Below, piece after piece: positions 1 to 15,370 of a stretch of DNA of 64,000 nucleotides. Position 1 is the stretch's first letter. Each line of letters begins with the position of its first letter. The notes under the pieces were generated by a model. It did not search any database. It was not told the DNA's origin and saw only the letters and a program-made list of their open reading frames with translations. Position numbers and translations under genes: made by a program. Source of the DNA: a virus; the UHGV virus genome UHGV-0129253; one strand, written 5' to 3'.

Positions 1-11
1 TCAAGTTTACA

Positions 12-650
12 TTGAAAGGTTATGCAGAGGATGCGGTAGGCCAGATCATTATTGATAAAGGCATCGTTAAGTTTGAGGGGGATTTTGATGAATCCGCGAA
101 AACATTCATAGACTTCGTTGCCAAACGTTGGAGCGAGCAATGGAAAGACCTGGAAAAGCGCGCTAGTGAGTTTGATCGGTTCATGGATGCAATGGATACA
201 GCAAAAGAGGCTCTTGCTGCCGGGACTCCGTTAGATCTGGAGTCACTTTTCAACGGCGAAGTGGCCTCTGCGATGTTCGCCACCATGTTCGCGGGTGAGT
301 TCGTCCGCAGCGGTGCCAAAAACTACCTTGAGCTGGATTACAACGTCCCTGCAATTGGCGATTTCGTCGTTACCATCCAACGCAAAGAAGGTAAGACGCC
401 AGGTGAACGCGTCGCAGAGCTTGAGGCCGTTGTGGATCAGCGTAACGGAGAGTGTGACCGTTTGATCAACGAGCTTCATGCACTTCGGGAAGAAAGAATA
501 TGCGCGGGTAGCAATACACGTAATGCAGCGGATATCTACTTCCAGTTAGTTGAGGAATGCCAGATTCCACCAGGCGGCTCTCTTGTCGATTACGTCAGAC
601 ATTTAATGGCGGAAGTTAACTCCAGCCATAAAGATGGTGAGGTGCGCTGA
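12..650 (+). CDS. Hypothetical protein, possibly 5'-partial (TTG at window edge, no upstream in-frame stop)
   Basis: 212-aa ORF; stop overlaps next start (ATGA). Confidence 0.45.
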   Translation: MKGYAEDAVGQIIIDKGIVKFEGDFDESAKTFIDFVAKRWSEQWKDLEKRASEFDRFMDAMDTAKEALAAGTPLDLESLFNGEVASAMFATMFAGEFVRSGAKNYLELDYNVPAIGDFVVTIQRKEGKTPGERVAELEAVVDQRNGECDRLINELHALREERICAGSNTRNAADIYFQLVEECQIPPGGSLVDYVRHLMAEVNSSHKDGEVR

Positions 651-1030
651 TGTTTGGCATTGACGCACAGCGTATAGCCGCTTTTGCAAAAAGCCCTCTT
701 GATAATCCCTTGTCTCGTAGTGAGCAAATGGAGCTGGCAAGGCTTTTTCTTCACATTCAAAAACAGGCAGACATTTTCAATAACATGCCTAATCAACCTA
801 TTCTGGATGGTCACATCCAGATGGTCATTAACAGTCATGAGAAAGGCTGGGCTGCAATCGTCCCCTGCACAATTACATACAAGTTGGCGAAAGAGGTTCA
901 AGAGTTTCGAAAAGCCAGTGTCGAATCGGAGTCTACCAAAGCCGCAATAAACACTCTTATTCGCATGGGGTTCACATGGACCGGTGGAGCCTACTGGCAA
1001 GCACCTCAACCCATTTTATCCGGCAATTAG
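650..1030 (+). CDS. Hypothetical protein
   Basis: 126-aa ORF translationally coupled to upstream ORF; hairpin downstream. Confidence 0.5.
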   Translation: MFGIDAQRIAAFAKSPLDNPLSRSEQMELARLFLHIQKQADIFNNMPNQPILDGHIQMVINSHEKGWAAIVPCTITYKLAKEVQEFRKASVESESTKAAINTLIRMGFTWTGGAYWQAPQPILSGN

Positions 1031-1061
1031 GCGCTACAAATCCTTCTGCATGAATAAATAA

Positions 1062-1080
1062 AGGCCATAACTTATGGCCT
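1062..1080 (+). terminator. Perfect hairpin AGGCCATAA-C-TTATGGCCT after ORF 650-1030 (no clear T-run)
   Basis: 9-bp inverted repeat read directly. Confidence 0.35.
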
Positions 1081-1081
1081 T

Positions 1082-1140
1082 AAATAAATTGTTTTCTACC
1101 TTTTCTTATTTGTGAAAATAAACCAGCACTTGGTAGTGCT
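1082..1140 (+). promoter_or_regulatory. Early-type promoter module: degenerate palindrome AAATAAATTGTTTT, TGTGAAAAT extended -10-like box, palindrome AGCACTtggtAGTGCT
   Basis: Same ~40-bp module (ATTTGTTTTCTACC...TGTGAAAAT) recurs at 8011 and 12461. Confidence 0.35.
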
Positions 1141-1168
1141 TATGTAACAGCAAAGAAGAGAAAAACAC

Positions 1169-1720
1169 ATGAGTAACAAAATCGAAAATCCCGTAGTTCT
1201 CATTCACAAGCGCGAGAACCACGACTCCTATGCGGTGGCGATCACCAATGGGAGTCACGATTTTTACGATGGCCTGCTAATGGCCTCAGTGTCGCCTGAT
1301 GAGGCAGACAACTCTTTTGCCGTCTTCGCTATGGTTGGTTACTACATGGCTGCCGAAATTGAGAAGTTGCGGGCGCAGAGAGACGCATTAGCGGCGGAGA
1401 ATGTGGCATTGCGATCTAAGGCTGCGGAACTGGCACATGAAGCGTCAAAAATTTACTCGGCATATAACGCCACTATCACAGAGCCTGACGGGGATTTTAT
1501 GGACATGCAGACATTGCATGAAATGCAGTGCATAGAAACTCCAGCCACCGATGCTTTTCTGGCTGAAGTACGTGCGCAGGGCGTGGATATGGCTCGTAAC
1601 GCGATGATTGATTTTGTTGATGGTGAAGTTGGGCCAAACAAGAACGTTCCGGGGCTGATTAGAGGCGCAGAGATATGCGTAAGTATTGCTGAACAGCTTC
1701 GCAAAGGAGGCAACCAGTGA
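1169..1720 (+). CDS. Ead/Ea22-like prophage early protein
   Basis: 183-aa ORF; resembles the ead/Ea22-like family of lambdoid prophage early regions (from memory, not searched). Confidence 0.55.
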   Translation: MSNKIENPVVLIHKRENHDSYAVAITNGSHDFYDGLLMASVSPDEADNSFAVFAMVGYYMAAEIEKLRAQRDALAAENVALRSKAAELAHEASKIYSAYNATITEPDGDFMDMQTLHEMQCIETPATDAFLAEVRAQGVDMARNAMIDFVDGEVGPNKNVPGLIRGAEICVSIAEQLRKGGNQ

Positions 1721-2523
1721 GCAAGATTGACTATCAGGCACTGCGTGAAAAGGCAGAGAAAGCAACGTGTGGCGAGTGGGCGCTAGAATATGGAGATGGC
1801 AGATTTGATGGTGATGATGCACTAATTCATCGCGAGGCTGCTGGATATATTCCCATTTGCAGAATTGAAGGAGCGCATCCTGAAAGCGGTTTCGATGAAG
1901 ATTTCCAAATGGAGCAGCAGGCCAATGCTGAATTCATCGCCGCAGCCAACCCGGCTACTGTGCTGGTATTACTGGATGAACGGGAAAGGAACCAGCAATA
2001 CATCAAACGCCGTGACCAGGAGAACGAGGATATTGCGCTAACGGTTGGGAAGCTGCGCGTTGAGCTGGAAGCCGCAGAGAAGCGCATTGCTGAACTGGAG
2101 TCACTGATGGAACCAAAGTTACCGCAGCCAGCGGTGGTTGACAACGATAAGTTCCGAGCGGATTTTGAACGGTGGATGGTTGAGGATGAAAAGTGCATCG
2201 TAGGAAGCTCTGACCCTTATCCAGCTGGGATTGAGTCACGCAACTGGAGAGCATGGAACGCCTGCCGCGCCGCCATGCTTCAGAGTCAAGATAGTGGCAT
2301 TAAGGATAGCTGGATAAGCTGTAGTGAGCGAATGCCGGATACCAAAACAGCCGTTCTTGTTGCCAAGGAGTTTGATAGGAAAGGTGACTGGCGAATGAAA
2401 TGGGCGACTTACATCCCGGGGCATCCTGACGCTAATGATGGGTGGATCATTCCTGGGGCGTCGTGGAAACCGTCACACTGGATGCAGCTACCAGAACCTC
2501 CGCAGGAGTCGCAGAGTGAATAA
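1717..2523 (+). CDS. Ead/Ea22-like family protein with coiled-coil and Trp-rich C-terminal region
   Basis: 268-aa ORF, GTG start overlapping upstream stop. Confidence 0.5.
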   Translation: MSKIDYQALREKAEKATCGEWALEYGDGRFDGDDALIHREAAGYIPICRIEGAHPESGFDEDFQMEQQANAEFIAAANPATVLVLLDERERNQQYIKRRDQENEDIALTVGKLRVELEAAEKRIAELESLMEPKLPQPAVVDNDKFRADFERWMVEDEKCIVGSSDPYPAGIESRNWRAWNACRAAMLQSQDSGIKDSWISCSERMPDTKTAVLVAKEFDRKGDWRMKWATYIPGHPDANDGWIIPGASWKPSHWMQLPEPPQESQSE

Positions 2524-2737
2524 AGCAGAGTTATTTCAGAAAATATCGGCTCTCGCGACTGAATGTCACGCTATAGCATCTGAGCTTGATGTTGGCGGTG
2601 AACGAACCGAGATGTTCGAAATATACAGTGTGCTGCGCAATCTCTGTCGGCGTGGCTACGCCACTCAAGTAGGGCGAATGACTAACCCACTACTCTCATC
2701 CTGTGATGAGGATGACTCGGATGAGGATGACGAATGA
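2516..2737 (+). CDS. Small hypothetical protein with acidic C-terminus (DEDDSDEDDE)
   Basis: GTG start at 2516 with AGGAG ~9 nt upstream; the ORF track's longer start overlaps the upstream gene. Confidence 0.45.
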   Translation: MNKAELFQKISALATECHAIASELDVGGERTEMFEIYSVLRNLCRRGYATQVGRMTNPLLSSCDEDDSDEDDE

Positions 2738-3399
2738 TGCATAAATCAGTAGCCGGTGAGTTTCAGAAGGAAGTCGATAATACTACCGTTCTATTGGACG
2801 ATATTTTAAGCATTCTCGCGCTTCTTGAGGCTGGCGATTGGTCAGAACATTGCACTAAAACGGAGTTAGGCGGTCGGCTTGAAAGAGAGATTACACGACT
2901 TATTGGTGATGCGCAGGAAGCTACAGTCACTAGTTATGAGTTAATCGCTGAAGCCTGGCGTTTGATGGATGGACAAGATCCTAAAACTAGCGATTGGCAT
3001 AGCAAGGCTTCGAAGTATTTAAATTCCGATAGGGTAGAAAAAGTTGATGATGTGAAACCGAAGCCAGTAGACCACGGTTTCCGCGATAACTGCGAATGCT
3101 CTAGTTGCCAGACCACGGCCCGTATTTGTTCCGAATTGACAGATAAGTCCAGCCTAATCTACGAAGTTAATGTAGGCGGTAATACATGGGTCGAATGCAC
3201 AAGAGCTGCATACGTAAGAGCAAAAGACAAGGGTGAATTAACCAGAGTTGTTGCCCATCACCCAAATAATGAGCTTAAAGATCACCAGATTAGAGAACTG
3301 GTGAACGAGTTGCGGGATATTGCGGTTCAGTACCACGGAACGCAGCAATTGCGGGAGAAAATTGCCAGAGCAGTGAACAACTCAGTCCGTAAAAAATAA
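2734..3399 (+). CDS. Hypothetical protein (Cys cluster CECSSCQ)
   Basis: 221-aa ORF, ATGA overlap with upstream gene. Confidence 0.5.
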   Translation: MMHKSVAGEFQKEVDNTTVLLDDILSILALLEAGDWSEHCTKTELGGRLEREITRLIGDAQEATVTSYELIAEAWRLMDGQDPKTSDWHSKASKYLNSDRVEKVDDVKPKPVDHGFRDNCECSSCQTTARICSELTDKSSLIYEVNVGGNTWVECTRAAYVRAKDKGELTRVVAHHPNNELKDHQIRELVNELRDIAVQYHGTQQLREKIARAVNNSVRKK

Positions 3400-3786
3400 G
3401 CAATAGTACGATAAAGAGGCCCCATGCTCTTGATGGGGCCTGTAGCAACTAGCGTTATGGACGCTGGTTTACGTACTCAATGATCGCTTTGATAATCGCG
3501 AACATCGGCGGCACGATTTTGAACAGTAAGTTAACCATAACAGGCCTCACTTAGTTTTATCGCGCCTAGCTGCAAATACCTTTGGGCTTGCCTTTGCAGT
3601 TGCAATATCTGTAGTCGCCAGATACTTACGGCACGATTTCGAGTTAAGGTAAGGTTTTAGAGTCACCAAAAACCTGGACTTAAATCTTCTTTGAGAACAA
3701 CGATGTTTAGTAAATGGTCATTATTACCTGGTATGACCACTCAACGTTTCTTGATGAATCCAGTACATTCGGTTAATCTTAATTCA

Positions 3787-3870
3787 GTCGCCAGATACTT
3801 ATGGCTCAGGAACAGAGCCGCAAACTCTGTTTCCTTTTAAAAAGCCCAGCCTAGTCAACTGGGCTTTTTA
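3787..3870 (+). ncRNA. Candidate small RNA: repeated 16-mer AGTCGCCAGATACTTA, then hairpin AGGAACAGAG/CTCTGTTTCCT, then terminator hairpin plus T-run
   Basis: No ORF; two hairpins and a terminator in ~65 nt; the 16-mer also occurs at 3615. Confidence 0.25.
3843..3870 (+). terminator. Rho-independent terminator (AGCCCAG...CTGGGCT + TTTTT)
   Basis: 7-bp stem, 9-nt loop, T5 run. Confidence 0.55.
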
Positions 3871-4164
3871 ATGTCTATTTTTAACCCAACATACCCTCAA
3901 TACTGCAACATCAGTGTCTTGCGAATTAAGATAGTGTGAATAGATTTTTCATGCAAGTGCATAAGCCTGTGGATAACTCAGGAAGGAAAAAGTGACTTCT
4001 GCGCACTTTAGACAGGACAAGGCGTTCGAAAAAGTCAATGGGAAGAAAAAATTTGTTAAAAATAACGTTTGTTTGAATTGTATATATTTATGCCTTTCAA
4101 TAGTTAGCATCTTATTAACATCTTTTTTAAGAGATAGAGTTCAAAAATATATAGCTTCAATATA

Positions 4165-4184
4165 TACTGTATGTGTATACAGTA
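4165..4184. promoter_or_regulatory. LexA (SOS) box TACTGTATGTGTATACAGTA
   Basis: Perfect CTGT-N8-ACAG, 17 nt upstream of the UmuD'-like start. Confidence 0.7.
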
Positions 4185-4200
4185 TTAAGAGGCGAGTATT

Positions 4201-4590
4201 ATGGGCTTCCCTTCTCCTGCGGCGGATTATGCTGAGAGCCGTATTTCTCTTGATCAGCAGATAATTAGACATCCTTCAGCGACCTACTTCATGAGGGCAG
4301 CTGATAGTCATCATCGTGAGGGAATATTACAGGGTGCATTGCTGGTGGTCGATTCCTCACTTACCCCGGTTGATGGTTCTCTGCTTGTATGCGCTCTGGA
4401 TGGGGAATATCGCGTAAAAAGATACCGGAAGTACCCACGTCAGCATCTGGAGGATTTAAGAACCGGTAAGAAGGAAGCATTGCCAAAGGATGACGATGGA
4501 TGCACGGGCAGCAATGCCGTGTTTGGTGTGATCACTCACATTATCAACGACGCAAGAAGTGGCGAGTTTGATGATTGTCCTGTGATGTAG
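4201..4590 (+). CDS. UmuD'-like SOS mutagenesis protein (S24 LexA-like peptidase fold), HumD-like pre-processed form
   Basis: MGFPSPAADY...HPSATYF... begins at the UmuD Cys24-Gly25 cleavage position; LexA box upstream; no umuC partner in window. Confidence 0.75.
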   Translation: MGFPSPAADYAESRISLDQQIIRHPSATYFMRAADSHHREGILQGALLVVDSSLTPVDGSLLVCALDGEYRVKRYRKYPRQHLEDLRTGKKEALPKDDDGCTGSNAVFGVITHIINDARSGEFDDCPVM

Positions 4591-4601
4591 GAGAACTGTT
4601 T

Positions 4602-4626
4602 AGGTGGTGCAATGCACCACCTTTTT
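4602..4626 (+). terminator. Hairpin AGGTGGTGCA-A-TGCACCACCT + TTTT between convergent humD-like and mrp
   Basis: 10-bp stem plus T-run. Confidence 0.55.
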
Positions 4627-4627
4627 A

Positions 4628-5728
4628 TCACACTGCGCGGAATGCGATTTCGCCAGGTATTACTTCACCTTGCCAATACATTTGGGCAGCAACGCGATCT
4701 GCGAGGTCACGATAAATAGCCGTAAATTCACTATCTGGACGACTAATAACGGTTGGTGTTCCGTTATCCAGATCTTCACGAAGAGAGATATGAAGTGGCA
4801 TTTGGCCTAACAACTGCGTGTTGTATTTCTCGGCCAGTTTCTGTGCGCCACCGGTGCCAAAAATTGGCTCGTGATGACCGCAGTTACTGCAAATATGCAC
4901 ACTCATGTTTTCGACGATACCCAGTACCGGCACTTCGACTTTTTCGAACATCACAATGCCTTTCTTCGCATCGATCAGCGCGATGTCTTGCGGCGTAGTT
5001 ACCACAACCGCACCAGTTACAGGAATGTTCTGCGCCAGCGTCAACTGAATATCACCAGTGCCCGGCGGCATATCGAGAACGAGATAGTCCAGATCAGGCC
5101 ATATAGTTTCCTGCAACATCTGCATCAGCGCCTTGCTGGCCATCGGTCCACGCCACACCATTGCATTGTCGTCGGTGACCAGATAACCAATAGAGTTGGT
5201 TGCCAGGCCATGAGACATGATAGGTGCCATGTGAGTACCGTCAGGTGAGGTTGGACGTTGGTTTTCCGCGCCCAGCATGGTTGGAATTGATGGACCATAG
5301 ATATCGGCATCCAAAATACCAACTTTCGCACCTTCAGCAGCCAACGCCAGTGCCAGGTTTACCGCCGTGGAGGATTTACCCACGCCGCCCTTGCCTGAGC
5401 TGACGGCGATAATGTTCTTAACGCCATTAATGCCTGGTTGGTTTTTGACGCGCTTAAGCGTGGCAATGTTGTACGACAGCTTCCAGTCAATAGCCTTTGC
5501 GCCAGTGATACGGAGCAGATCACCACTACATTGCTCTTTCAGGTCTTCAAAAGGCTTATTCCACACGAAAGGCATGATTAGTTCGACATGCAGTGTGTCA
5601 TCCATCAACGCAACATGGTGTAACGCTTTAAGCGTAGTCAGGTTGTGTTTCAGGGTTGGGTGCTGAAAATTAGCCAGCGTACCGGCTACCATTGCTCTCA
5701 GGGCATCCGGCGATTTGGACTCGCTCAT
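4628..5728 (-). CDS. mrp: Iron-sulfur cluster carrier ATPase Mrp/ApbC
   Basis: 366 aa, P-loop SSGKGGVGKS, near-full-length match to enterobacterial Mrp; divergent from metG as in E. coli. Confidence 0.9.
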   Translation of the reverse strand: MSESKSPDALRAMVAGTLANFQHPTLKHNLTTLKALHHVALMDDTLHVELIMPFVWNKPFEDLKEQCSGDLLRITGAKAIDWKLSYNIATLKRVKNQPGINGVKNIIAVSSGKGGVGKSSTAVNLALALAAEGAKVGILDADIYGPSIPTMLGAENQRPTSPDGTHMAPIMSHGLATNSIGYLVTDDNAMVWRGPMASKALMQMLQETIWPDLDYLVLDMPPGTGDIQLTLAQNIPVTGAVVVTTPQDIALIDAKKGIVMFEKVEVPVLGIVENMSVHICSNCGHHEPIFGTGGAQKLAEKYNTQLLGQMPLHISLREDLDNGTPTVISRPDSEFTAIYRDLADRVAAQMYWQGEVIPGEIAFRAV

Positions 5729-5885
5729 CCCGTCTCCTTTATTTTAATTTGCGCAATTGTCGCCTTGTAGTGTACTCCAGCTACGGCATTTAATCATTTA
5801 TGAGAAATGCTGTTATCACATGGCAGACATAAGGCCATTTTGTTACTATCAAGCCCCTTTTCACTACAAAGAAGTAATGCCTACT

Positions 5886-7919
5886 ATGACCCAAGTCGCG
5901 AAGAAAATTCTGGTGACGTGCGCGCTGCCGTACGCTAACGGCTCAATCCACCTCGGCCATATGCTGGAGCACATCCAGGCTGATGTCTGGGTTCGTTACC
6001 AGCGAATGCGCGGCCACGAGGTTAATTTCATCTGTGCCGACGATGCCCACGGTACGCCGATCATGCTGAAAGCGCAGCAGCTTGGTATCACACCGGAGCA
6101 GATGATTGGCGAAATGAGTCAGGAACACCAGACTGATTTCGCAGGCTTTAACATCAGCTATGACAACTATCACTCGACGCACAGCGAAGAGAACCGCCAG
6201 CTGTCTGAGCTTATCTATACTCGCCTGAAAGAGAACGGTTTTATTAAAAACCGCACTATCTCTCAGTTGTACGATCCGGAAAAAGGCATGTTCCTGCCGG
6301 ACCGTTTTGTAAAAGGCACCTGCCCGAAATGTAAAGCGCCAGATCAATACGGCGATAACTGTGAAGTCTGCGGCGCAACATATAGCCCGACTGAATTGAT
6401 CGAGCCGAAATCGGTGGTTTCTGGCGCTACCCCGGTAATGCGTGATTCTGAACACTTCTTCTTTGATCTACCCTCTTTCAGCGAAATGTTGCAGGCATGG
6501 ACCCGCAGCGGCGCGTTGCAGGAGCAGGTGGCGAACAAAATGCAGGAATGGTTTGAATCCGGCCTGCAACAGTGGGATATCTCCCGCGATGCGCCTTACT
6601 TCGGTTTTGAAATTCCGAACGCGCCGGGCAAATATTTCTACGTCTGGCTGGACGCGCCGATTGGCTACATGGGTTCCTTCAAGAATCTGTGCGACAAGCG
6701 CGGCGATACCACCAGCTTCGATGAATACTGGAAGAAAGACTCCACCGCCGAGCTGTACCACTTCATCGGTAAAGATATTGTTTACTTCCACAGCCTGTTC
6801 TGGCCTGCCATGCTGGAAGGCAGCAACTTCCGCAAGCCGACCAACCTGTTTGTTCACGGCTATGTGACGGTGAACGGCGCGAAGATGTCCAAGTCTCGCG
6901 GCACCTTTATTAAAGCCAGCACCTGGCTGAATCATTTTGACGCTGACAGCCTGCGTTACTACTACACTGCGAAACTCTCTTCGCGCATTGATGATATCGA
7001 TCTCAACCTGGAGGATTTCGTTCAGCGCGTGAATGCCGATATCGTGAACAAAGTGGTTAACCTGGCCTCTCGTAATGCAGGCTTTATCAACAAGCGTTTT
7101 GACGGCGTGCTGGCAGGCGAACTGGCTGACCCGCAACTGTACAAAACCTTTACTGATGCCGCTGAAGTGATTGGCGAAGCATGGGAAAGCCGCGAATTTG
7201 GTAAAGCTATCCGTGAAATCATGGCACTGGCTGACCTGGCTAACCGCTATGTCGATGAACAGGCTCCGTGGGTGGTGGCGAAGCAGGAAGGTCGCGATGC
7301 CGATCTGCAGGCGATTTGCTCTATGGGCATTAACCTGTTCCGCGTGCTGATGACTTACCTGAAACCGGTACTGCCGAAACTGACTGAACGTGCAGAAGCA
7401 TTCCTGAATACAGAACTGACCTGGGATGGTATCCAGCAACCGCTGCTGGGCCATAAAGTGAATCCGTTCAAGGCACTGTATAACCGTATCGATATGAAAC
7501 AGGTGGAAGCACTGGTGGAAGCATCCAAAGAAGAAGTGAAAGCCACAGCCGCACCGGTAACTGGCCCACTGGCTGACGACCCGATTCAGGAAACCATCAC
7601 CTTTGACGACTTCGCCAAAGTTGACCTGCGTGTGGCGCTGATTGAAAACGCGGAGTTTGTTGAAGGTTCTGACAAACTGTTGCGCCTGACGCTGGATCTC
7701 GGCGGTGAAAAACGCAATGTCTTCTCAGGCATCCGTTCTGCTTATCCAGACCCACAGGCACTGATTGGTCGTCACACCATTATGGTGGCTAACCTGGCTC
7801 CGCGTAAAATGCGCTTCGGTATCTCCGAAGGCATGGTGATGGCTGCTGGCCCCGGCGGGAAAGATATCTTCCTGTTAAGCCCGGATGTCGGTGCTAAACC
7901 TGGCCACCAGGTTAAGTAA
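5886..7919 (+). CDS. metG: Methionine--tRNA ligase
   Basis: 677 aa from ATG 5886 ([25 protein letters not shown]...); HIGH-type and KMSKS motifs; the ORF track's 5757 start is an upstream artefact. Confidence 0.95.
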
Positions 7920-7941
7920 TTAAGCAACCATTCTTCACAAT

Positions 7942-7965
7942 GCCCAGCAATACGCTGGGCATTTT
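7942..7965 (+). terminator. metG terminator (GCCCAGC...GCTGGGC + TTTT)
   Basis: Hairpin plus T-run 23 nt after stop. Confidence 0.55.
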
Positions 7966-8003
7966 CATATAGACACAACCCCTTCTGACTTTAACAAACC
8001 CTA

Positions 8004-8018
8004 AAACAATTTGTTTTC
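8004..8018. promoter_or_regulatory. Early-type palindrome AAAACAA-T-TTGTTTT
   Basis: Perfect 7-bp arms; upstream of a GATAAT -10-like box. Confidence 0.4.
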
Positions 8019-8052
8019 TACCTTTTATTGATTGAGATAATAAGCCACATAA

Positions 8053-8068
8053 GAAAACAAATTGTTTC
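8053..8068. promoter_or_regulatory. Early-type palindrome GAAAACAAATTGTTTC
   Basis: 13 nt upstream of ATG 8081. Confidence 0.4.
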
Positions 8069-8080
8069 GGAGTGGTTGAA

Positions 8081-8380
8081 ATGTTGAACATTACCCAAGC
8101 CTACCAGGTGGCATTGATCAGTTCATCTCATACATCAGAGGAAGATGCTCGCCGATTCATGATCGCAAGCAATGAGCTGGATTGGGTTTCACAAATTGAC
8201 GGCGGTTGTATTGTCCACGCTGGGTTACAGGATGATGTCTGGAAAGAGGACTTGCGTCGATATGGTATATCCGAAGGCGCGATTGCTAACATTCAGAAAG
8301 TACTTGATGTAGGCTTTGACTCTGTACATTTTGATTGTGGTGCGCCGGTCGTTGAAGGGCTTGAGTGCTGGAACTGGTAA
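8081..8380 (+). CDS. Hypothetical protein
   Basis: ATG 8081 with GGAG upstream. Confidence 0.5.
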   Translation: MLNITQAYQVALISSSHTSEEDARRFMIASNELDWVSQIDGGCIVHAGLQDDVWKEDLRRYGISEGAIANIQKVLDVGFDSVHFDCGAPVVEGLECWNW

Positions 8381-8425
8381 CAGATATTAAAGCATTGGTA
8401 GTTTGTTTTTAGGATTATCAAAGAA

Positions 8426-9160
8426 ATGAAAAAGTTGAAAAGTTTAGAAATCCCTGGGACTGGTTATAAATTCTTTATGGACAACGCGGAGTGTGCACCT
8501 AACGCGTTGGAAAAAATACAAAGTCTTATCAACAGCCTTACTGAAGAAGCGAAAGAACTGAATAGCGAGGCGACAAAGGACAATACAGCTAAAATCCAAT
8601 GCTTAAATCTCGTTTCTTATTGTTTATATCAAGTGTCCAAGACACTGATTAAAGGCAATATCTATTACGACGATGAAGACACCTCGACACCTGAAGAAAA
8701 AGATAGCGATGAAGAACTCTATGAAGATATCTCTACTAGTGCGGGTCACGCTGCCTTCGATGCTATGGGTAAATCGTCAGGCATCAGATCGTTTGTTGAA
8801 CAGAACAATTCGACAATAATGATTGAGTACTGTGAACAAACAAGCTCCAAGGCCATACATGTTCTTCACGATGTTGCTGCAGGGGTTCGCTGTGAGGCTG
8901 AAGCGGTCAGAAAAGATGTATTTGGTGCAGACAGTAATACCGTGAAAGCGTTCATCAACAGTGCTCTGCTAAATTCTTACTCAAACCTTATCGTCAATGC
9001 GGCACTATGCGCAAATTCTGGTGAAGAACACATTGTCATAACCGAAACCAAATATGAGCATCAACAGTCACCAACCATAGAAGAGGTAACTGCATTGGCT
9101 ATCAAACAGGCGAGTGAAATTAGTGATGAAATTCTCTCTCTGCTAAACAAAACTAAGTAA
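8426..9160 (+). CDS. Hypothetical acidic protein
   Basis: 244-aa ORF with acidic stretches (DDEDTSTPEEKDSDEELYED). Confidence 0.5.
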   Translation: MKKLKSLEIPGTGYKFFMDNAECAPNALEKIQSLINSLTEEAKELNSEATKDNTAKIQCLNLVSYCLYQVSKTLIKGNIYYDDEDTSTPEEKDSDEELYEDISTSAGHAAFDAMGKSSGIRSFVEQNNSTIMIEYCEQTSSKAIHVLHDVAAGVRCEAEAVRKDVFGADSNTVKAFINSALLNSYSNLIVNAALCANSGEEHIVITETKYEHQQSPTIEEVTALAIKQASEISDEILSLLNKTK

Positions 9161-9229
9161 AACATTGATAATGGCGGTCACAATTTGATTCTTTTCTATA
9201 AGAATCCGTTGATCGCCACTACTCCCCTT

Positions 9230-10020
9230 CCATGCCTGGAATCACATCCTTAAATATCAATAGGTTACAGTTGTTTATACCAATAAGAAAACAACTGAAT
9301 AACAGATCAACGAAACATCAACGCTTTCACCCGATTTGGTCTAAAAAATTGACGTTTTCACACATCACTGCTTATACCCGTAATTCTACGCAGCAGACAG
9401 CGCCACAGCGTCCAATTTTCACCACAGACGACCCAACACACTACCAACAAAAACACACGCTCAAAATCGCTCCCGTTGCGTTACACAACCATATAAACAA
9501 CTTATTTTCAGGTATAACGAAACAACTAAATAACACATATGCCATTTCCAAAAACAACCAACCTCTTTATGGCAGGCTACCGAAAAGACCCACCTCTTCT
9601 CCCCAGGCTACCGGACAACCAACCTAACTTTCACAGGCAATCCGAAAACATTCATACGCGCGATACCCACGACACGCCATTACCCAAACAGCGAAGAAAC
9701 ACCAGAATCACTGAACCCCCAACGAAGCCTGTAACCGCAAGGCTTCTCTCAATCCCAAAAGACACGAAACAGAACAATCACGGGAAACGCCATTACCCAA
9801 CACACGAATAACTACAAAAGCCTTTCACACACTCCAGACAAACAACTCAAACACAATAACGAAAGGAATCGCCCACCTGCCATTACTCCATACACGGAGA
9901 AGAACAATCACCAAAACGACGAGAACACCCCATAGAAGAACCACCGCAAAACGAACGAAACCACATACACCGACAGAGAAAACAACACACCCAATTCACC
10001 AACAGAAATAGTCGCCGTAT
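9230..10020. other. G-depleted A+C-rich noncoding tract (~0.8 kb)
   Basis: Plus strand ~12-15% G by hand count on three 60-nt lines; ORFs in it translate to low-complexity sequence. Confidence 0.5.
9551..9653 (+). repeat. Direct repeats of CAGGCTACCG(A/G)A(A/C)AA..CC(A/C)ACCT (3-4 copies)
   Basis: Same family recurs at 13565-13648. Confidence 0.4.
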
Positions 10021-10219
10021 AGAACGTTCTGGAAGGAGTGAGCATTAACGCCTATAGAGAGGTTGAAACAGATAAAACACGAAGAAAACACAACATGTAT
10101 AGCGAACAAGACAGGTATGTATAAGTGGGGAGGGAAGGAGGGGTGTTGCCTCCTTTTTCGTATTTATTCAACTCCTGATTTTATCCCCCGTAACACCCCT
10201 ACGGTCAGCCTTCGGTCCA

Positions 10220-10360
10220 TACAGGGAAAAGGCTGCATCCTGCTACAGAAACGGCTGGGTTGCCTTCGGGGAACGGCTGGGGATTTTCAGGGAAACGGTC
10301 GAGTTGCCTGTGTGGATTTCGGGAAAAGGCTCGATGCCGGTTCAGGAACGGTGGCGTACC
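10220..10360 (+). repeat. Iteron array: six copies of (C)(A/G)GGAAA(A/C)GGCTG at ~21-24 bp spacing, with a DnaA-box-like TGTGGATTT
   Basis: Copies at 10222, 10246, 10268, 10288, 10320, 10343. Confidence 0.5.
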
Positions 10361-10690
10361 GGTATAGCGTGAGGGAGAGTTGCGGCTACCCACCTGTAAT
10401 GTGCGGGAAGAAGAGAGGCGCTCACGTGCAGGCGAACTTACTTACCGCAGGATTCCCTCTGAATGCCCAACTACAGCGTAATTGTGCCAGACAGCCAACG
10501 GGTCACAATCGATTTCAGTAGGTTTTCGGGGAGATGATTATTCTGCCCACCAGCCACCTTCGGCCACTAAATCAGAATAATGTAAAAAGTGTACTCGGTA
10601 CTGAACCTGAAAACTCACTGCCAAAACCACATTCACCGGAATAAAATCCTTTTCCGCCTTTGTCTTATTGCGATAATAACACCAACAAGT

Positions 10691-10704
10691 AAACAACATG
10701 TTTA
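10691..10704. promoter_or_regulatory. Early-type palindrome AAACAACATGTTTA after a GATAAT box
   Basis: Module CGATAAT(A/T)ACACCAACAAG-AAACAA..TGTTT shared with 13180 and 13670. Confidence 0.35.
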
Positions 10705-10735
10705 GACGTTATATAAACGAAGTGAGGATGAAGAG

Positions 10736-10954
10736 ATGATTAAGATGCCTGTGACGGTTGAGGTGTGGGGCGTGGATTCCCTGGCTGAGTGTCTGGATGC
10801 AGTGGGGCCGGAGTTGTACCGCAAGTTGTGGTCGTTCGTCCCGGCAGAAGGGGAATCGCCCAAAGGGAAGGATATCTGGCACCTGCTGAGTGAAGATGAA
10901 AAGCGAGAGCTGGTGGACGCGGTACACAGCGAGTTCCCGGGCGACGAAGATTAA
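10736..10954 (+). CDS. Small acidic hypothetical protein
   Basis: 72 aa; GTGAGGATG upstream; terminator downstream. Confidence 0.5.
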   Translation: MIKMPVTVEVWGVDSLAECLDAVGPELYRKLWSFVPAEGESPKGKDIWHLLSEDEKRELVDAVHSEFPGDED

Positions 10955-10961
10955 GAGTGAG

Positions 10962-10983
10962 GCCACCAGCACGGTGGCTTTTG
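10962..10983 (+). terminator. Terminator hairpin GCCACCAGCACGGTGGC + TTTTG
   Basis: One of a family of AAGGCCACCA...TGGTGGCCTT hairpins (also 11434, 13053, 13525). Confidence 0.5.
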
Positions 10984-11066
10984 TCGCTATTAACCTCCGG
11001 GGCAGCGCAGCACCGTAACGATATACTTTGTGGCCGTTTTCTTACTGGTATTGTTTACGCAATTCA

Positions 11067-11083
11067 GAAAACAACATGTTTAA
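11067..11083. promoter_or_regulatory. Early-type palindrome GAAAACAACATGTTTAA
   Basis: Downstream of a TATTGT -10-like box; module shared with 11520. Confidence 0.35.
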
Positions 11084-11093
11084 GGATTGCGTT

Positions 11094-11423
11094 ATGTTTG
11101 CAAATATCGACATCAACCAAATTAAGAAATTAACTCAAAAAGAGTTTGATCAGTTTTATGAGTTAGAAGGTTGGTCTTCCACTCTGATCAATTCGCGGTG
11201 GGTGCTTGAGCTGATGACTCGTGATGACGCACCTGCTTTGATGATTTGCGACATGGGTGAAGATGCTGACTTTATGGATATGAGCGAATTTTGTGTGGAC
11301 ACATACAACCGCAGCCAGAAGTACTACTTCACATGCGATAGCGAAAATGACGTGATTTCTAAGGTCTATCTTCACCTCGTCCAGCATTGGGACGTTCAGG
11401 AGTTTCTTGAAGTATTCGAGTAA
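11094..11423 (+). CDS. Hypothetical protein
   Basis: ATG 11094 with AAGGA 7 nt upstream; the longer track start lacks an RBS. Confidence 0.45.
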   Translation: MFANIDINQIKKLTQKEFDQFYELEGWSSTLINSRWVLELMTRDDAPALMICDMGEDADFMDMSEFCVDTYNRSQKYYFTCDSENDVISKVYLHLVQHWDVQEFLEVFE

Positions 11424-11550
11424 CCCCAACCAAAGCCAGCAATGCTGGCTTAATTTCTCTATAGCCGCAGGGAAGAACCTGCATATAGCTCATGCACCTG
11501 ATCAATATGCTTTGTAGCCGTTTTCTTACTGGTATTATTTACGCCATTGA

Positions 11551-11567
11551 GAAAACAAGTTGTTTAC
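11551..11567. promoter_or_regulatory. Early-type palindrome GAAAACAAGTTGTTTAC
   Basis: Follows a TATTAT -10-like box. Confidence 0.35.
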
Positions 11568-11576
11568 GGAGTTGTG

Positions 11577-11888
11577 ATGAAAAAATCATTGGTTCTTGGT
11601 CTGGACAAAGACCAGAAGAGAAAAGAGAAGCCTGCACTGGTTGCTCAATTAACTTTGCTAGACATCGTTGCCAATGGAACCTCTATTCGTCTGTTCCGTG
11701 AAACAGCGGTGTCTTTCGATAAAAACACCTTTACTCGTTATGTAATGAATGTTCGTCGCCAGCGTGGAAAAGGCTGGATGGCATTTCAAAGAATGTGGCC
11801 GGAACATCAGCTCGAACTGGCTTTGATGGAAGTTAACCGCGTGGCCCAGCAAGAAATTCAGAGAGCATCAGTGATGGCAATAGCCTGA
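11577..11888 (+). CDS. Hypothetical protein
   Basis: ATG 11577 with GGAG upstream. Confidence 0.5.
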   Translation: MKKSLVLGLDKDQKRKEKPALVAQLTLLDIVANGTSIRLFRETAVSFDKNTFTRYVMNVRRQRGKGWMAFQRMWPEHQLELALMEVNRVAQQEIQRASVMAIA

Positions 11889-11922
11889 TAATGTGCAAGT
11901 GGTAATTAGTCGACAGTACGAC

Positions 11923-11951
11923 AGCCCCGCCATCCTTACGGGGCTTTTTTG
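11923..11951 (+). terminator. Rho-independent terminator (AGCCCCG...CGGGGCT + TTTTTT)
   Basis: Hairpin plus T6. Confidence 0.65.
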
Positions 11952-12014
11952 TATTGTAAGTACATACTTACGATCATAGAATAGAAAAATAACCAATACA
12001 CTACGGAGAGTGAA

Positions 12015-12410
12015 ATGACCATTAAACGCGAAAAACTGACAGTTGATGTTTACTATGCCTCTGAAACCGCCGAAGGTAAGAATGTGGCAAAAATCACCGT
12101 TGTTACGTACAACACCGAAACTGGCGCCGAAGTACAGGCCAGTACGATCGTGCGTAAAGGTGATGCCTCCGACGGCGAGTACGCGATTCAATACCAGTCT
12201 ATTTTCGATGCAACTGACCCGCTGCTGCTGAAAATCGAGAACTACTTCCGCCAGGTTGATGAAGAGGTGTTTGAACCAATGATGAATATGGTTGACACCG
12301 TATTCGCCTCCAACCTGAATACCAACACTGCCTGGATTGGTCAGTACGGCCTGCGCATTACCTCTGGCATTCCTGCCGACACCTTAATCCCTGAAAGCGT
12401 ATTCGCTTAA
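12015..12410 (+). CDS. Hypothetical protein
   Basis: 131-aa ORF with GGAGAG RBS. Confidence 0.55.
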   Translation: MTIKREKLTVDVYYASETAEGKNVAKITVVTYNTETGAEVQASTIVRKGDASDGEYAIQYQSIFDATDPLLLKIENYFRQVDEEVFEPMMNMVDTVFASNLNTNTAWIGQYGLRITSGIPADTLIPESVFA

Positions 12411-12422
12411 TCCTCTTTAAAT

Positions 12423-12446
12423 GGCGCGTAAACCGCGCCATTTTCT
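12423..12446 (+). terminator. Rho-independent terminator (TGGCGCG-TAAA-CCGCGCCA + TTTTCTT)
   Basis: Hairpin plus T-run. Confidence 0.65.
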
Positions 12447-12456
12447 TATGCCCGAT

Positions 12457-12500
12457 AACAATTTGTTTTCTGCCTTATCTGATTTGTGAAAATGATTTCA
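12457..12500 (+). promoter_or_regulatory. Early-type promoter module (AACAATTTGTTTTCTGCC...TGTGAAAAT)
   Basis: Third copy of the module seen at 1082 and 8004. Confidence 0.35.
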
Positions 12501-12527
12501 CTGAAGCAACTTAATAAGGAAACCATC

Positions 12528-12902
12528 ATGGGACTTGATATCTATATCGAGACACAGCCTAAAAACGATCTGAATAACGAGGCATCCAGAAAGCAGGTTG
12601 CTTACTTCCGTAAGTTCAATGCGCTCGTTGGGTGGATGGAGCGCAACGTAGGTGAAGTCGAAAATTGTGAGCTTTTAGAATTAACGATGAATGACATTTG
12701 TTTTCTGAAGGCTCATTTGATGCACATAAACGAAAGCAATTGCGAAGAGTACTTGCCTACCCGGGAAGGTTTTTTCTTCGGCAGTCAGGAGTACGATGAA
12801 GGTTACTGGCATGACGTGGACAAGCTGAAAAAACTTGTGGAAGACCTGATCAGGAACCACGACTTTCACAATAACAGACTGACCTTCTGCGCCTGGTGGT
12901 AA
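12528..12902 (+). CDS. Hypothetical protein
   Basis: ATG 12528 with AAGGA upstream. Confidence 0.5.
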   Translation: MGLDIYIETQPKNDLNNEASRKQVAYFRKFNALVGWMERNVGEVENCELLELTMNDICFLKAHLMHINESNCEEYLPTREGFFFGSQEYDEGYWHDVDKLKKLVEDLIRNHDFHNNRLTFCAWW

Positions 12903-12904
12903 AT

Positions 12905-13036
12905 ATGGGCGATTTCAAGAAACGCCTGAAGGAAAGAGCCGAGATGGTCAGAAAGCAAAACGCCTCTTCTGTCATCAGATACGCAAGGCAGTTTAGTCGC
13001 AACAACAAATCAGTTGAGGAAAAGATCCTTAGCGTA
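12905..13036 (+). CDS. Small ORF (43 aa, basic), translationally coupled
   Basis: ATG 3 nt after upstream stop; below the track threshold; frame checked codon by codon. Confidence 0.3.
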
Positions 13037-13203
13037 ATCGGGCGATAATTATTAAGGCCACCAGCATTGGTGGTCTTAAATGACTTTTAATAACCGAAGG
13101 TTAGTTTGAAACCTGGCTATCAACTTCCAGAACCTTTCTTGTGTATTCAGCCTGTATTAACTTCTTTTATGCCTTATCTACACTGCGATAATTACACCAA
13201 CAA

Positions 13204-13220
13204 GAAAACAACATGTTTAC
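13204..13220. promoter_or_regulatory. Early-type palindrome GAAAACAACATGTTTAC after GATAAT
   Basis: Module shared with 10670 and 13670. Confidence 0.35.
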
Positions 13221-13237
13221 GCAGTGAGGATATGCTC

Positions 13238-13519
13238 ATGACTGATTTCACCATTACCCCTAAAGCACAAAATGTATTCCTTGAATCATGGCTGGACTTG
13301 CCGGAAACAGAACAGCAAGAAATGGATCATGTGGATTATGACGAGCAGGTAAGCACGCGATTCTTCCACTTTGAGGGATGCGTTTACGACATTGCCGACT
13401 TCATGCGAGATGACCGCTTCCCTGAATGGCACGCAAGCTATCCACTAAACGCCTTTGCCATGCTGATGATCCGTGTGGGTGATTCAGGGGATACCATCGA
13501 CATCGGTCTGCTCCACTAA
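13238..13519 (+). CDS. Hypothetical protein
   Basis: ATG 13238 with GTGAGGAT ~9 nt upstream. Confidence 0.45.
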   Translation: MTDFTITPKAQNVFLESWLDLPETEQQEMDHVDYDEQVSTRFFHFEGCVYDIADFMRDDRFPEWHASYPLNAFAMLMIRVGDSGDTIDIGLLH

Positions 13520-13564
13520 AGACTAAGGCCACCAATGCTGGTGGCCTTAAATGACCATCCTGTT

Positions 13565-13648
13565 TCCCGCAGGCTAAAAACACCAACCTCTTACCTCCAG
13601 GCAACCGACAAACCCACCTGTTCCCGTCCGGCTACCGCAACTTTCCAC
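13565..13648 (+). repeat. Direct repeats CAGGC(T/A)A..CGACAAACCCACCT (3 copies), second locus of the 9551 family
   Basis: Read directly. Confidence 0.4.
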
Positions 13649-13688
13649 TTTGACGCCTTATTCGTACAACGATAATTAACACCAACAA

Positions 13689-13703
13689 GAAAACAATTTG
13701 TTA
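13689..13703. promoter_or_regulatory. Early-type palindrome GAAAACAATTTGTTA after GATAAT
   Basis: ~20 nt upstream of ATG 13724. Confidence 0.35.
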
Positions 13704-13723
13704 TTTACGATAAGGAATTAATC

Positions 13724-14206
13724 ATGAATTTTATCGCTACTGTAAACGCACCCGCACATGGCAATATCGCTGTAACGTTCTCTGACATTGAAAAACGAGT
13801 ACTTGGTGCATGGCGCGACAATGAGACGGTAGAACTGTCAGCACAAGAAAAATGCATTATTGCACGCGACATCATTGGCAATCGTCGTTACTCGCGGGTA
13901 TTTGAGAAAGCGTATGTGGTAAATTCTGGGTTCGGAACGTTCGTCTTTCCGGTGCGCTCCGGGCGATTCTGCCAGTCCAAGCTGATTGAGTTCGCTACGC
14001 AGATTTCTGTCTGGATTAAAACTCAATCGTCGTTCAAATTTTCCGACGATGAAGCAGTATCGCAGGGGATGCGGATCGCCAACAATGCAATTAAATGCAA
14101 AAACATTACGTATACCGCTGGCGTTGACACATGGAAACTGTTTTGCGCTAACTTTATGCTGAATGTATACGCAAGCAACCGCATCCACATCCTTGATGGC
14201 GTGTAA
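13724..14206 (+). CDS. Hypothetical protein
   Basis: 160-aa ORF, AAGGA RBS. Confidence 0.55.
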   Translation: MNFIATVNAPAHGNIAVTFSDIEKRVLGAWRDNETVELSAQEKCIIARDIIGNRRYSRVFEKAYVVNSGFGTFVFPVRSGRFCQSKLIEFATQISVWIKTQSSFKFSDDEAVSQGMRIANNAIKCKNITYTAGVDTWKLFCANFMLNVYASNRIHILDGV

Positions 14207-14208
14207 CT

Positions 14209-14237
14209 GAGAAGAGGGCCAGAAACGGCCCTTTCTC
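14209..14237 (+). terminator. Long hairpin GAGAAGAGGGCC-AGAAAC-GGCCCTTTCTC after ORF 13724-14206
   Basis: ~11-bp stem; loop carries the iteron core GAAACGGCC. Confidence 0.4.
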
Positions 14238-14259
14238 TATAGCCACCAGCTGCCGCAGG

Positions 14260-14340
14260 GAAATTTTCAGAAACGGCGAGGAACGCATTCATGAGCCGAC
14301 GGGAAACGGCCAGGATTTTTTCGGGAAACGGCTGCATTCG
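14260..14340 (+). repeat. Second iteron array: 3 copies of (C)GGGAAACGGC
   Basis: Copies at 14268, 14300, 14322; same core as 10220-10360. Confidence 0.45.
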
Positions 14341-14742
14341 CCTTTATGTAGAAAAAAACATCGGGAAGCTGGTGGAATCCAACCAGCGGTTGTCGGACAG
14401 GCGAGCGGGGAAAATTATGATGACTTTCGTCGCCTGAGACATCCAGATTTCTTTCGTAGCGTAATCACATACGTGATTAAGTGGTGTGATTATGTGAAAA
14501 ATCACGCGCACATAATACGCGAGCGGATACGGAACAAAACAAAATGCCGATCCGCGCCGACAATTAAACGCGGATCATAAAGCAAGACTAAAAGCCAATG
14601 ATTAACCACACACCATAGCGCAATATAACGCGTTTTAAGCGCGTTAATGTGTTGAGTAATGGGTATGTACTGGTAAGGATATAAAAGCTCGTCTGTGGCG
14701 TTATTTTGGCGCTTATTTTATGTTGTTGGAGTGAGTCAAAGA

Positions 14743-14772
14743 CAATAAAAAACGCGCCATCATTGGCGCGTT
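14743..14772 (-). terminator. Minus-strand terminator (AACGCGCCATCATTGGCGCGTT, T-run on minus strand)
   Basis: Perfect 8-bp stem; A-run on plus strand. Confidence 0.55.
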
Positions 14773-14793
14773 ATGGTGGAAGTATTAGAAACG

Positions 14794-14816
14794 AAAAAAG
14801 CGCCCATAGTGGGCGC
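14794..14816 (-). terminator. Minus-strand terminator GCGCCCATAGTGGGCGC, copy 1
   Basis: Overlaps the stop of gene 14823-15053. Confidence 0.55.
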
Positions 14817-14822
14817 TTGATT

Positions 14823-15053
14823 TTATTTGTGCAAACTGATTTTAAATCCCATTTCTACAAACGCTTTTAGCATTAAAAATATATCAGCGTCATTCACGTC
14901 TGCTTTTTTCCGCTCCTGGTCGTTCAATAAGTCAATTTTTCGCGTTGTTTCATCGATAAACTCGACTGAGCGCCCAGCGTAACCAGCGATCCCAGCGATG
15001 CGATTAACAAAATAATCATTGCGCACGTTAACGCCAGCGATAAGAATAAACAT
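14823..15053 (-). CDS. Small hypothetical protein, paralog A (76 aa)
   Basis: Paralogous to 15096-15323; AAGGAG RBS. Confidence 0.55.
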   Translation of the reverse strand: MFILIAGVNVRNDYFVNRIAGIAGYAGRSVEFIDETTRKIDLLNDQERKKADVNDADIFLMLKAFVEMGFKISLHK

Positions 15054-15066
15054 GATTAAGCTCCTT

Positions 15067-15087
15067 AAAAGCGCCCATAGTGGGCGC
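15067..15087 (-). terminator. Intergenic hairpin GCGCCCATAGTGGGCGC, copy 2
   Basis: Identical stem-loop between the paralogs. Confidence 0.5.
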
Positions 15088-15095
15088 TATTGTTT

Positions 15096-15323: not shown

Positions 15324-15337
15324 GATTAAGCTCCTTT

Positions 15338-15357
15338 AAAGCGCCCATAGTGGGCGC
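15338..15357 (-). terminator. Intergenic hairpin GCGCCCATAGTGGGCGC, copy 3
   Basis: Identical stem-loop. Confidence 0.5.
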
Positions 15358-15370
15358 AAGATTCCATTAA

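Follow-up and report, generated by a model that had tools for sequence, protein, structure and literature searches.

The locus considered here raises the question of whether a viral genome supplies its host with a mutagenesis protein that the cell itself obtains only by a slow processing step and, if so, under what control and in the service of what function. In E. coli, UmuD' is made only by the slow, RecA-dependent self-cleavage of UmuD at Cys24-Gly25. The original prediction for this DNA was of an SOS-regulated gene that encodes a UmuD'-like protein directly, on an element without umuC, and the present analysis followed up this prediction over the window, by which is meant the whole 64-kb stretch of the virus genome UHGV-0129253. 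The gene, called humD below, and the elements around it are as follows.

4140 to 4168, plus strand: sigma-70-like promoter, predicted, with TTCAAA at 4140-4145, a 17-nt spacer and TATACT at 4163-4168 (9 of 12 consensus positions)
4165 to 4184, no strand assigned: LexA (SOS) box TACTGTATGTGTATACAGTA, matching the consensus TACTG(TA)5CAGTA at 18 of 20 positions
4186 to 4188, plus strand: in-frame TAA, five codons 5' of the ATG, read directly and from the translated upstream frame
4187 to 4192, plus strand: Shine-Dalgarno-like AAGAGG, 8 nt 5' of the ATG, read directly
4201 to 4590, plus strand: humD coding sequence, 129 aa and a stop, for a pre-processed UmuD'-like protein of the S24 fold, taken from the list of open reading frames
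4560 to 4587, plus strand: codons of the C-terminal tail SGEFDDCPVM (residues 120-129), delimited by family alignment
4602 to 4631, plus strand: intrinsic terminator with a 9-bp G+C-rich stem, a 3-nt loop and TTTTTAT, from a terminator scan

Whether the product is really pre-processed depends on where its translation begins. The frame at 4201-4590 opens MGFPSPAADYAESR, and its first residues (MGFPSPAADYAESRISLDQQ) are MGFPSPAADY. In an alignment with full-length E. coli UmuD, Gly2 pairs with Gly25, the first residue of UmuD', which bears out the prediction that the protein starts at the UmuD autocleavage position, and alignment to UmuD and to the UmuD' structure reveals neither an N-terminal arm nor a Cys/Ala-Gly cleavage site. 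Because in-frame stops lie 5' of the ATG, namely the TAA listed above and a second one further 5' in the translated upstream frame, no N-terminal arm can be encoded in humD; a longer N-terminus is thereby ruled out, including a true start upstream with an intact arm, and the coordinates and description first given are correct for the 129-aa reading frame. A weak tblastn extension with UmuD into 4144-4200 was considered as a relic of the arm and rejected as overhang, since this region holds a stop and the operator. Longer database forms of HumD relatives (148-223 aa) mostly retain an internal Met immediately before GFPSP, and they look like products of start calls placed too far upstream, with the operator region translated, or like fusions to a small upstream reading frame. 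An initiator Met is usually cleaved off before Gly, and the mature product should therefore have the same N-terminus as UmuD'.

The family assignment is clear. The NCBIfam model NF051876 (HumD family translesion DNA polymerase, equivalog) matches the protein end to end, residues 1-129 on profile positions 1-129 of 129, with 219.8 bits against a cut-off of 120 (E 8e-66), and Pfam PF00717 (Peptidase_S24) matches with 37.9 bits against a cut-off of 23.3. The UmuD subfamily model NF007621 / PRK10276 gives 87 bits, below its cut-off of 110, and neither an arm nor a umuC is present; the window protein is a homologue of UmuD and not a member of the UmuD subfamily. The LexA model TIGR00498 gives 27.2 bits against 110.95, with the C-terminal domain alone aligning, and the label 'LexA family transcriptional regulator' carried by some HumD relatives is a misnomer. 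Identity is 100% to CYRAN_98 of Escherichia phage Cyrano, 91.5% to P1 HumD, 68-73% to N15 gp26 and phiKO2 gp23, 66% to HK140 gp28 and 44% to E. coli UmuD. The gene had been said to mirror P1 humD; with the profile score and the identity given above, together with the UmuD' start position in the alignments to UmuD and P1 HumD, it proves to be a HumD orthologue. The best solved structure is UmuD' 1UMU (E 6.7e-23), with query residue 2 on chain residue 1. An AlphaFold model had low confidence (mean pLDDT 43.5, pTM 0.33), its 95-sequence alignment probably being too uniform. The gene family is thus already known, with a curated NCBI model and an identical protein in public records.

The second part of the question concerns control. 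Both mismatches of the LexA box fall in the central spacer of the 20-mer, and its core 16-mer, CTGTATGTGTATACAG, lies at 4167-4182. None of 100 shuffles gave a match to the LexA consensus with three or fewer mismatches, and the consensus scan found no other LexA box in the 64-kb window, hence no wider SOS regulon there, the runner-up CTG-N10-CAG site having only 12 of 20 consensus matches. The bare CTGT-N8-ACAG 16-mer was found twice against 0.85 expected in the window and is not significant alone; its second occurrence, at 11691, matches the consensus at only 9 of 20 positions and is probably due to chance. The near-consensus box foreseen in front of the gene is therefore present at the position given for it and is the sole such site in 64 kb, and only the distance of 17 nt needs correction, the gap to the ATG being 18 nt from ACAG and 16 nt from the end of the 20-mer. 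The promoter prediction is weak and pattern-only (3 sites found versus 3.6 expected in the scanned region), and what makes it of interest is its position, the -10 sharing 4 nt with the LexA box. The terminator hairpin has a predicted RNA fold of -15.3 kcal/mol (z = -2.3). Promoter, operator, gene and terminator, as read from these signals, make up a compact single-gene unit of the SOS type.

LexA boxes precede humD in eight other lineages as well (P1, N15, phiKO2, HK140 and four more distant loci), and every lineage examined with enough upstream sequence has such a box, the flanking DNA being unalignable. The distance from box to ATG is 19 nt at the annotated site of P1, 14 nt in N15, 17 nt in two relatives at 45-52% identity and 19 nt in E. 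coli umuD. In phiKO2 the box before humD is annotated in the record, and in HK140 and two metagenomic or genomic relatives it precedes a small upstream reading frame. The operator characteristic of the HumD family would be represented in the window by the 18/20 site over the -10, which is unique there.

Expression can be judged from Cyrano, in which the LexA box and -10 before CYRAN_98 are identical to those of the window. RNA-seq of E. coli LF82 (GSE154648, re-analysed in PMC9928086) compares stationary growth in LB with THP-1 macrophages at 6 h, an environment that is genotoxic and SOS-inducing according to the authors. The values, as log2(fpkm+5), are as follows.

CYRAN_98 (humD): LB 7.4 and 6.9; macrophages at 6 h, 12.1 and 12.3
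CYRAN_99 (apbC, neighbour): LB 6.5; macrophages at 6 h, 5.9
CYRAN_100 (metG, neighbour): LB 4.0; macrophages at 6 h, 3.1
Host sulA: LB 7.1; macrophages at 6 h, 9.9
Host dinI: LB 7.3; macrophages at 6 h, 10.2
Host umuD: LB 5.4; macrophages at 6 h, 8.9
Host umuC: LB 3.4; macrophages at 6 h, 6.4

CYRAN_98 RNA is up about 30-fold in macrophages, alongside host sulA, dinI and umuDC; it already stands at 11.3-11.4 at 1 h, and the gene is the most strongly expressed in macrophages among CYRAN_74 to CYRAN_123. In the same data, its RNA is 4-6-fold up in conditions B1 and B6 without a rise of host SOS genes, and in LB it is about 15 times the plasmid median, which suggests that control of humD is leaky or not purely exerted by LexA. 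The conditions differ in more than SOS, and plasmid copy number, given as 5.5 per cell in the Cyrano paper, also contributes to the RNA level. The RNA-seq of the identical Cyrano gene fits the SOS control originally proposed, and a single-gene unit of the SOS type to which LexA is predicted to bind fits it likewise. Since LF82 possesses umuDC and these samples show its induction, a UmuC partner is available in this strain.

The element that carries the gene can be named. The first 12 kb of the window share 97.8% identity with pLF82 of E. coli LF82, the Escherichia phage Cyrano (OV696614.1), which has been described as SSU5-like by its authors, and the replicon is accordingly an SSU5-like phage-plasmid of the Cyrano/pLF82 type, neither P1 nor chromosome. 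Among plasmid records, 43 match the humD-apbC segment with an identity of 99% or more; most of them are non-mobilizable plasmids of about 107-112 kb from E. coli, E. albertii and Shigella. Upstream of humD lie about 800 bp with few reading frames and none that is credible, in which Rfam and tRNA scans of 3400-4165 gave no matches, followed by lambdoid-type ea22/ead/eaa genes; downstream, a convergent apbC/mrp ends at 4628 and is followed by a full-length metG.

A search by tblastn with E. coli UmuC found no UmuC in the 64-kb window (best E 0.27), as first noted, and none in three Cyrano stretches at positions 20000-101697 (best E 0.076), Cyrano 1-20000 and 101698-108379 being covered for umuC only through the corresponding segment of the window. 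No umuC-like polymerase gene is listed in those Cyrano stretches for which the annotation was read, and in the window tblastn likewise disclosed no hidden copy of umuC, dinB, lxr, phd/doc or hot. humD is thus an orphan, with no cognate Y-family polymerase gene found on the element. At the DNA level its identity to P1-type humD is about 88%, and the neighbouring ea22-type genes are shared at 88-92% identity with P1-like and HK620-like phages. Because homologues of Lxr, Phd, Doc and Hot are missing here, humD appears to have moved without its P1 neighbours, and the pattern would fit an exchange of accessory modules between phage-plasmid families.

Comparison with known systems shows considerable similarities, but there are also differences. 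P1 HumD (P1_gp103, YP_006569.1) likewise has 129 aa, the M-GFPSPAADY start and the same C-terminal tail, and likewise has a LexA box just 5' of its start (19 nt in P1, 16 nt here) on an element without umuC. P1 is a myovirus, however, whereas the window represents an SSU5-like siphovirus phage-plasmid; P1 humD lies between the divergent lxr upstream and phd-doc downstream in place of the gap with ea22-type genes and the apbC and metG found here, and its LexA site is annotated as shared with lxr, whereas the window box serves humD alone. CYRAN_98 has the same protein (100%), LexA box, -10 and apbC-metG neighbours as the window, and its equivalent occurs on about 80 PLSDB plasmids. The Cyrano and plasmid copies differ only in label, being called 'LexA-like peptidase S24' (the annotation of CYRAN_98 itself), 'S24 family peptidase' or 'DNA repair protein'. 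The Cyrano paper does not discuss CYRAN_98 and mentions neither UmuD nor LexA.

N15 gp26, phiKO2 gp23, HK140 gp28 and the homologue of the P22-like phage BTP1 are 62-73% identical to the window protein and share with it the pre-processed start, the tail, an upstream LexA box and the lack of umuC, but they have Thr at the position of the protease Ser, which the window protein retains. The gene of phiKO2 and HK140 has a divergent dinI as its partner, unlike that of the window, and in HK140-type loci a conserved reading frame of about 79 aa, absent here, precedes the gene and has the LexA box before it. E. coli UmuD / UmuD' (b1183; PDB 1UMU, 1I4V, 1AY9, 8GMT) belongs to the same S24 fold family at 44% identity, HumD residues 2-119 aligning with UmuD 25-139, and the distance from LexA box to ATG is similar. 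In contrast to UmuD, the window protein has no 24-residue arm, no cleavage step and no umuC operon partner, and it has a 4-residue insertion near residue 101, a 10-residue C-terminal extension and a degenerate GDSM motif.

These features recur across the family. Among the best relatives, taken as clusters, 106 of 120 begin M-G-F/L-P-S-P, and in a search for distant relatives over 1.84 billion representatives the same start is shared by 21 of 149 others, of 110-140 aa and at 38-69% identity, with 59 other matches carrying an arm. Over 100 clusters (67-98% identity) keep the start, full length and extra tail, as do relatives with as little as about 40% identity; the pre-processed form is accordingly a stable design rather than an accident of this locus. 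None of the six distant short forms with inspected contigs has an adjacent umuC, and where context exists on these six contigs, it is that of prophage ends or of an N15-like plasmid-prophage.

The protease site is less well kept. Ser36 and Lys73 of the window protein align with Ser60 and Lys97 of UmuD, and P1 HumD has both. In 104 close relatives, however, the Ser60 equivalent is replaced 45 times (S 59, T 43, A 2), and in pre-processed relatives at 40-52% identity it is P, A or T; the Lys97 equivalent is present in 102 of the 104, and the GDSM motif is degenerate, reading ADSH in the window protein. The site looks as if it were decaying under relaxed selection on catalysis, and catalytic competence across the HumD family would seem doubtful. 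In the tail, E122, F123, D124, D125, C126, P127 and V128 are invariant or nearly so in the 104 sequences, and neither UmuD nor any of the 48 arm-bearing relatives examined has a tail of the EFDDCPVM type; related tails in distant short forms read EFDDVPVM, EFDDTPF, EFDEIPCI and EFDERPCI. The tail resembles the tip of E. coli SSB, ...PPMDFDDDIPF as read from the K-12 genome, over a short match. It is a speculative and rather unlikely idea that the tail mimics the SSB tip and docks HumD, or HumD2-UmuC, to SSB-interaction pockets of proteins for replication and repair or to SSB-coated gaps, partly replacing lost functions of the arm. How the orphan HumD differs from UmuD' may be approached through the decay of its protease site and the conservation of its additional tail, both of them small leads.

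Taken as a whole, humD is very probably an SOS-controlled single-gene cargo of a Cyrano/pLF82-type, SSU5-like phage-plasmid that supplies ready-made UmuD'. In the undamaged cell, host LexA bound to 4165-4184 and covering the -10 would hold transcription low. Upon DNA damage, RecA would be activated, LexA would cleave itself and the humD promoter would open, giving a product that begins Met-Gly-Phe-Pro-Ser-Pro and that, after removal of Met, would have the N-terminus of UmuD'. Such a protein should require no activation step and, without the UmuD arm, should also lack the checkpoint functions and the signals for degradation by Lon and ClpXP. A HumD dimer would then combine with host UmuC, which is also LexA-controlled, to form a Pol V-like translesion polymerase, and the outcome would be more or earlier lesion bypass and mutagenesis in the damaged lysogen.

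HumD was reportedly characterised in 1999 by McLenigan et al. in J Bacteriol, and P1 HumD is said to have replaced UmuD' in SOS mutagenesis there, with good complementation only when supplied on a high-copy plasmid; how large the effect is in nature is for this reason uncertain. Dimerisation of the window protein, its binding to UmuC and the RecA filament and its complementation for UmuD' are expected by analogy with P1 HumD, its 91.5% identical counterpart, and the benefit of humD to the phage-plasmid is something that we only infer. P1 humD is dispensable for lytic growth (PMC10695390), which by the same analogy would fit an accessory role that benefits the lysogen.

Other functions have to be weighed against the supply of ready-made UmuD'. 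Heterodimers of UmuD with UmuD' are known, as is the binding of both proteins to Pol III subunits, and HumD might mainly modulate the host by pairing with uncleaved UmuD or, in the manner of the umuD products, by binding Pol III alpha, epsilon or beta; the UmuD2C checkpoint would then be shortened or the replisome altered, letting the phage-plasmid replicate after damage. In macrophages, humD RNA exceeds host umuD about 10-fold and umuC about 55-fold, far above what would saturate UmuC, and elements of the Cyrano type bring genes for a Pol III alpha of their own, for an epsilon-like exonuclease and for proteins resembling RecA and gp32, all of which would suit such a role. The work on P1 HumD, however, reported UmuD'-like complementation of mutagenesis, and we consider modulation as the main function possible but unlikely; it is compatible with the polymerase role, and both could coexist. 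Cleavage of UmuD is also possible between subunits, and HumD could accordingly be a protease in trans that acts within a heterodimer on the arm of host UmuD or on some other S24 substrate and so speeds UmuD' formation. The retention of Ser36 and Lys73 in the window protein and P1 HumD speaks for this, but the unconserved serine and the degenerate GDSM motif do not: the decay of the site fits self-cleavage that is no longer needed and argues against a trans-acting protease, which is improbable.

It is still less probable that HumD is an SOS-sensing induction factor, or antirepressor, that pairs with or titrates a short repressor consisting only of an HTH domain, even though Cyrano is inducible by ciprofloxacin and trimethoprim, its putative repressor CYRAN_45 has only 128 aa and is too short for a self-cleavage domain, and humD has the only LexA box of the window. 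A second good LexA box of Cyrano, CTGT-N8-ACAG, stands 26 nt before CYRAN_44, next to the repressor and in a region outside the window, and by RNA-seq CYRAN_44 behaves like an SOS gene, rising from 5.6 to 10.3 in macrophages; this box offers a more obvious route to induction, and the antirepressor reading was down-weighted because of it. HumD homologues, moreover, occur in phages with unrelated immunity (P1, N15, P22-like and lambdoid), and P1 does not require humD for lytic growth (PMC10695390). The lack of an arm and of a umuC partner, together with a box-to-ATG spacing like that of umuD (19 nt in umuD and P1 humD, 16 nt here) that would fit a deletion of codons 2-24, might finally suggest that humD is a decaying, 5'-truncated remnant of umuDC without a function of its own. 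The start, length and extra tail are conserved over more than 100 clusters, however, and the gene is equipped with a promoter, a ribosome-binding site and a terminator of its own, with strong transcription of the identical Cyrano gene; conservation and expression contradict a remnant, and this account is scarcely credible.

Finally, it should be noted that the finding itself adds little, as the gene is known, the family is curated and the exact protein has already been deposited. The practical relevance of humD on phage-plasmids lies in its prevalence in E. coli: humD-related DNA is present in 765 of 5,426 complete E. coli genomes, with 692 of the 806 matching places on plasmids, and LF82 is a Crohn's-associated strain. 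Ready-made UmuD' that phage-plasmids produce upon damage could raise stress-induced mutagenesis, and hence the evolution of resistance, in clinical E. coli.

The LexA boxes of three loci were compared for their distance to the start codon:

E. coli umuD locus (L002), 429-448: LexA box
P1 humD locus (L003), 2462-2481: LexA box
window, 4165-4184: LexA box upstream of humD

The spacing from box to ATG is 19 nt for E. coli umuD and likewise for P1 humD, as against 16 nt for the window humD. This similar spacing fits the derivation of humD from umuD by an in-frame loss of codons 2-24, in which the operator and the start codon would have been retained.

Two parts of the protein were followed through the HumD family alignment:

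window, 4306-4308: codon for Ser36 of humD, equivalent to the UmuD nucleophile Ser60
window, 4560-4587: C-terminal tail SGEFDDCPVM (amino acids 120-129)

The Ser60 equivalent is Ser in the window HumD, Thr in 43 of 104 close relatives and Ala in 2 of the 104, and it is Pro, Ala or Thr in distant pre-processed relatives; the Lys97 equivalent is retained in the alignment. Neither UmuD nor the arm-bearing relatives have the tail, which is near-invariant across the HumD family and similar to the C-terminal tip of SSB (MDFDDDIPF).

The surroundings of humD differ between lineages. An HK140 gp27-like ORF, conserved and about 79 aa long, was located at four comparison loci, three of them (L013, L014 and L015) metagenomic or genomic relatives:

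HK140 (L006), 1262-1501
L013, 3762-4001
L014, 3756-3995
L015, 330-578

This ORF immediately precedes humD in HK140-type lineages and in several that are more distant, with stop and start codons overlapping or abutting, and part of the "long HumD" database entries are fusions with it. A LexA box, identified by sequence match, lies upstream of the ORF in HK140, L013 and L014, and none was seen before it in the short upstream stretch searched in L015. No Pfam family is on record for the ORFs of the three metagenomic or genomic loci. Unlike the HK140-type loci, the window lacks this ORF. The window humD is preceded by about 800 bp (3400-4165) in which neither a real-looking ORF of more than 60 aa nor an Rfam match was found, and the corresponding stretch of the Cyrano record carries no annotation.

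window, 12-3399: lambdoid "ea" gene run (Ead/Ea22 plus DUF551, Eaa-like and Eae-like)
window, 3417-3441, minus strand: terminator-like hairpin
window, 3848-3865, plus strand: terminator-like hairpin

The "ea" run is common to P1-like phage-plasmids (SJ46, D6 and RCS47) and the podovirus HK620 at 88-92% nucleotide identity, which points to the exchange of accessory modules between unrelated temperate phages.

Downstream of humD lies a divergent gene pair:

window, 4628-5728, minus strand: apbC/mrp
window, about 5886-7919, plus strand: metG, full-length methionyl-tRNA synthetase with the tRNA-binding C-terminal domain

The E. coli chromosome has the same arrangement, but the chromosomal pair is only about 90% identical to the window pair, and among complete E. 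coli genomes the pair occurs at 223 plasmid places. During LF82 lysogeny, apbC (CYRAN_99) RNA is about 9 times above background and metG RNA is low. The metG gene of the phage-plasmid represents a second MetRS.

Two further features of the window were recorded:

window, 22761-22780 and 55790-55809: two far-apart, identical 20-mers, TTCTGTATATATAAATAATA
window, 63479-63725: three clustered tRNA genes (Asn-GTT, Tyr-GTA and Thr-TGT)

The 20-mers may belong to a larger repeat, or they may be a regulatory site that recurs. The Cyrano annotation has Asn, Thr and Ser tRNAs at the corresponding position rather than Asn, Tyr and Thr, and thus tRNA content is variable among close relatives.

Cyrano contains a second candidate LexA box in a region beyond the window:

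Cyrano OV696614.1, 41044-41063 (L008, 21045-21064): TACTGTTTACTTATACAGTG

This candidate lies 26 nt upstream of the "integrase" gene CYRAN_44, which adjoins CYRAN_45, a putative repressor of 128 aa that consists of an HTH only. CYRAN_44 RNA rises in macrophages from 5.6 to 10.3 (log2), an increase like that of humD. The candidate box at CYRAN_44/CYRAN_45 may represent a route by which SSU5-type phage-plasmids sense the SOS response.
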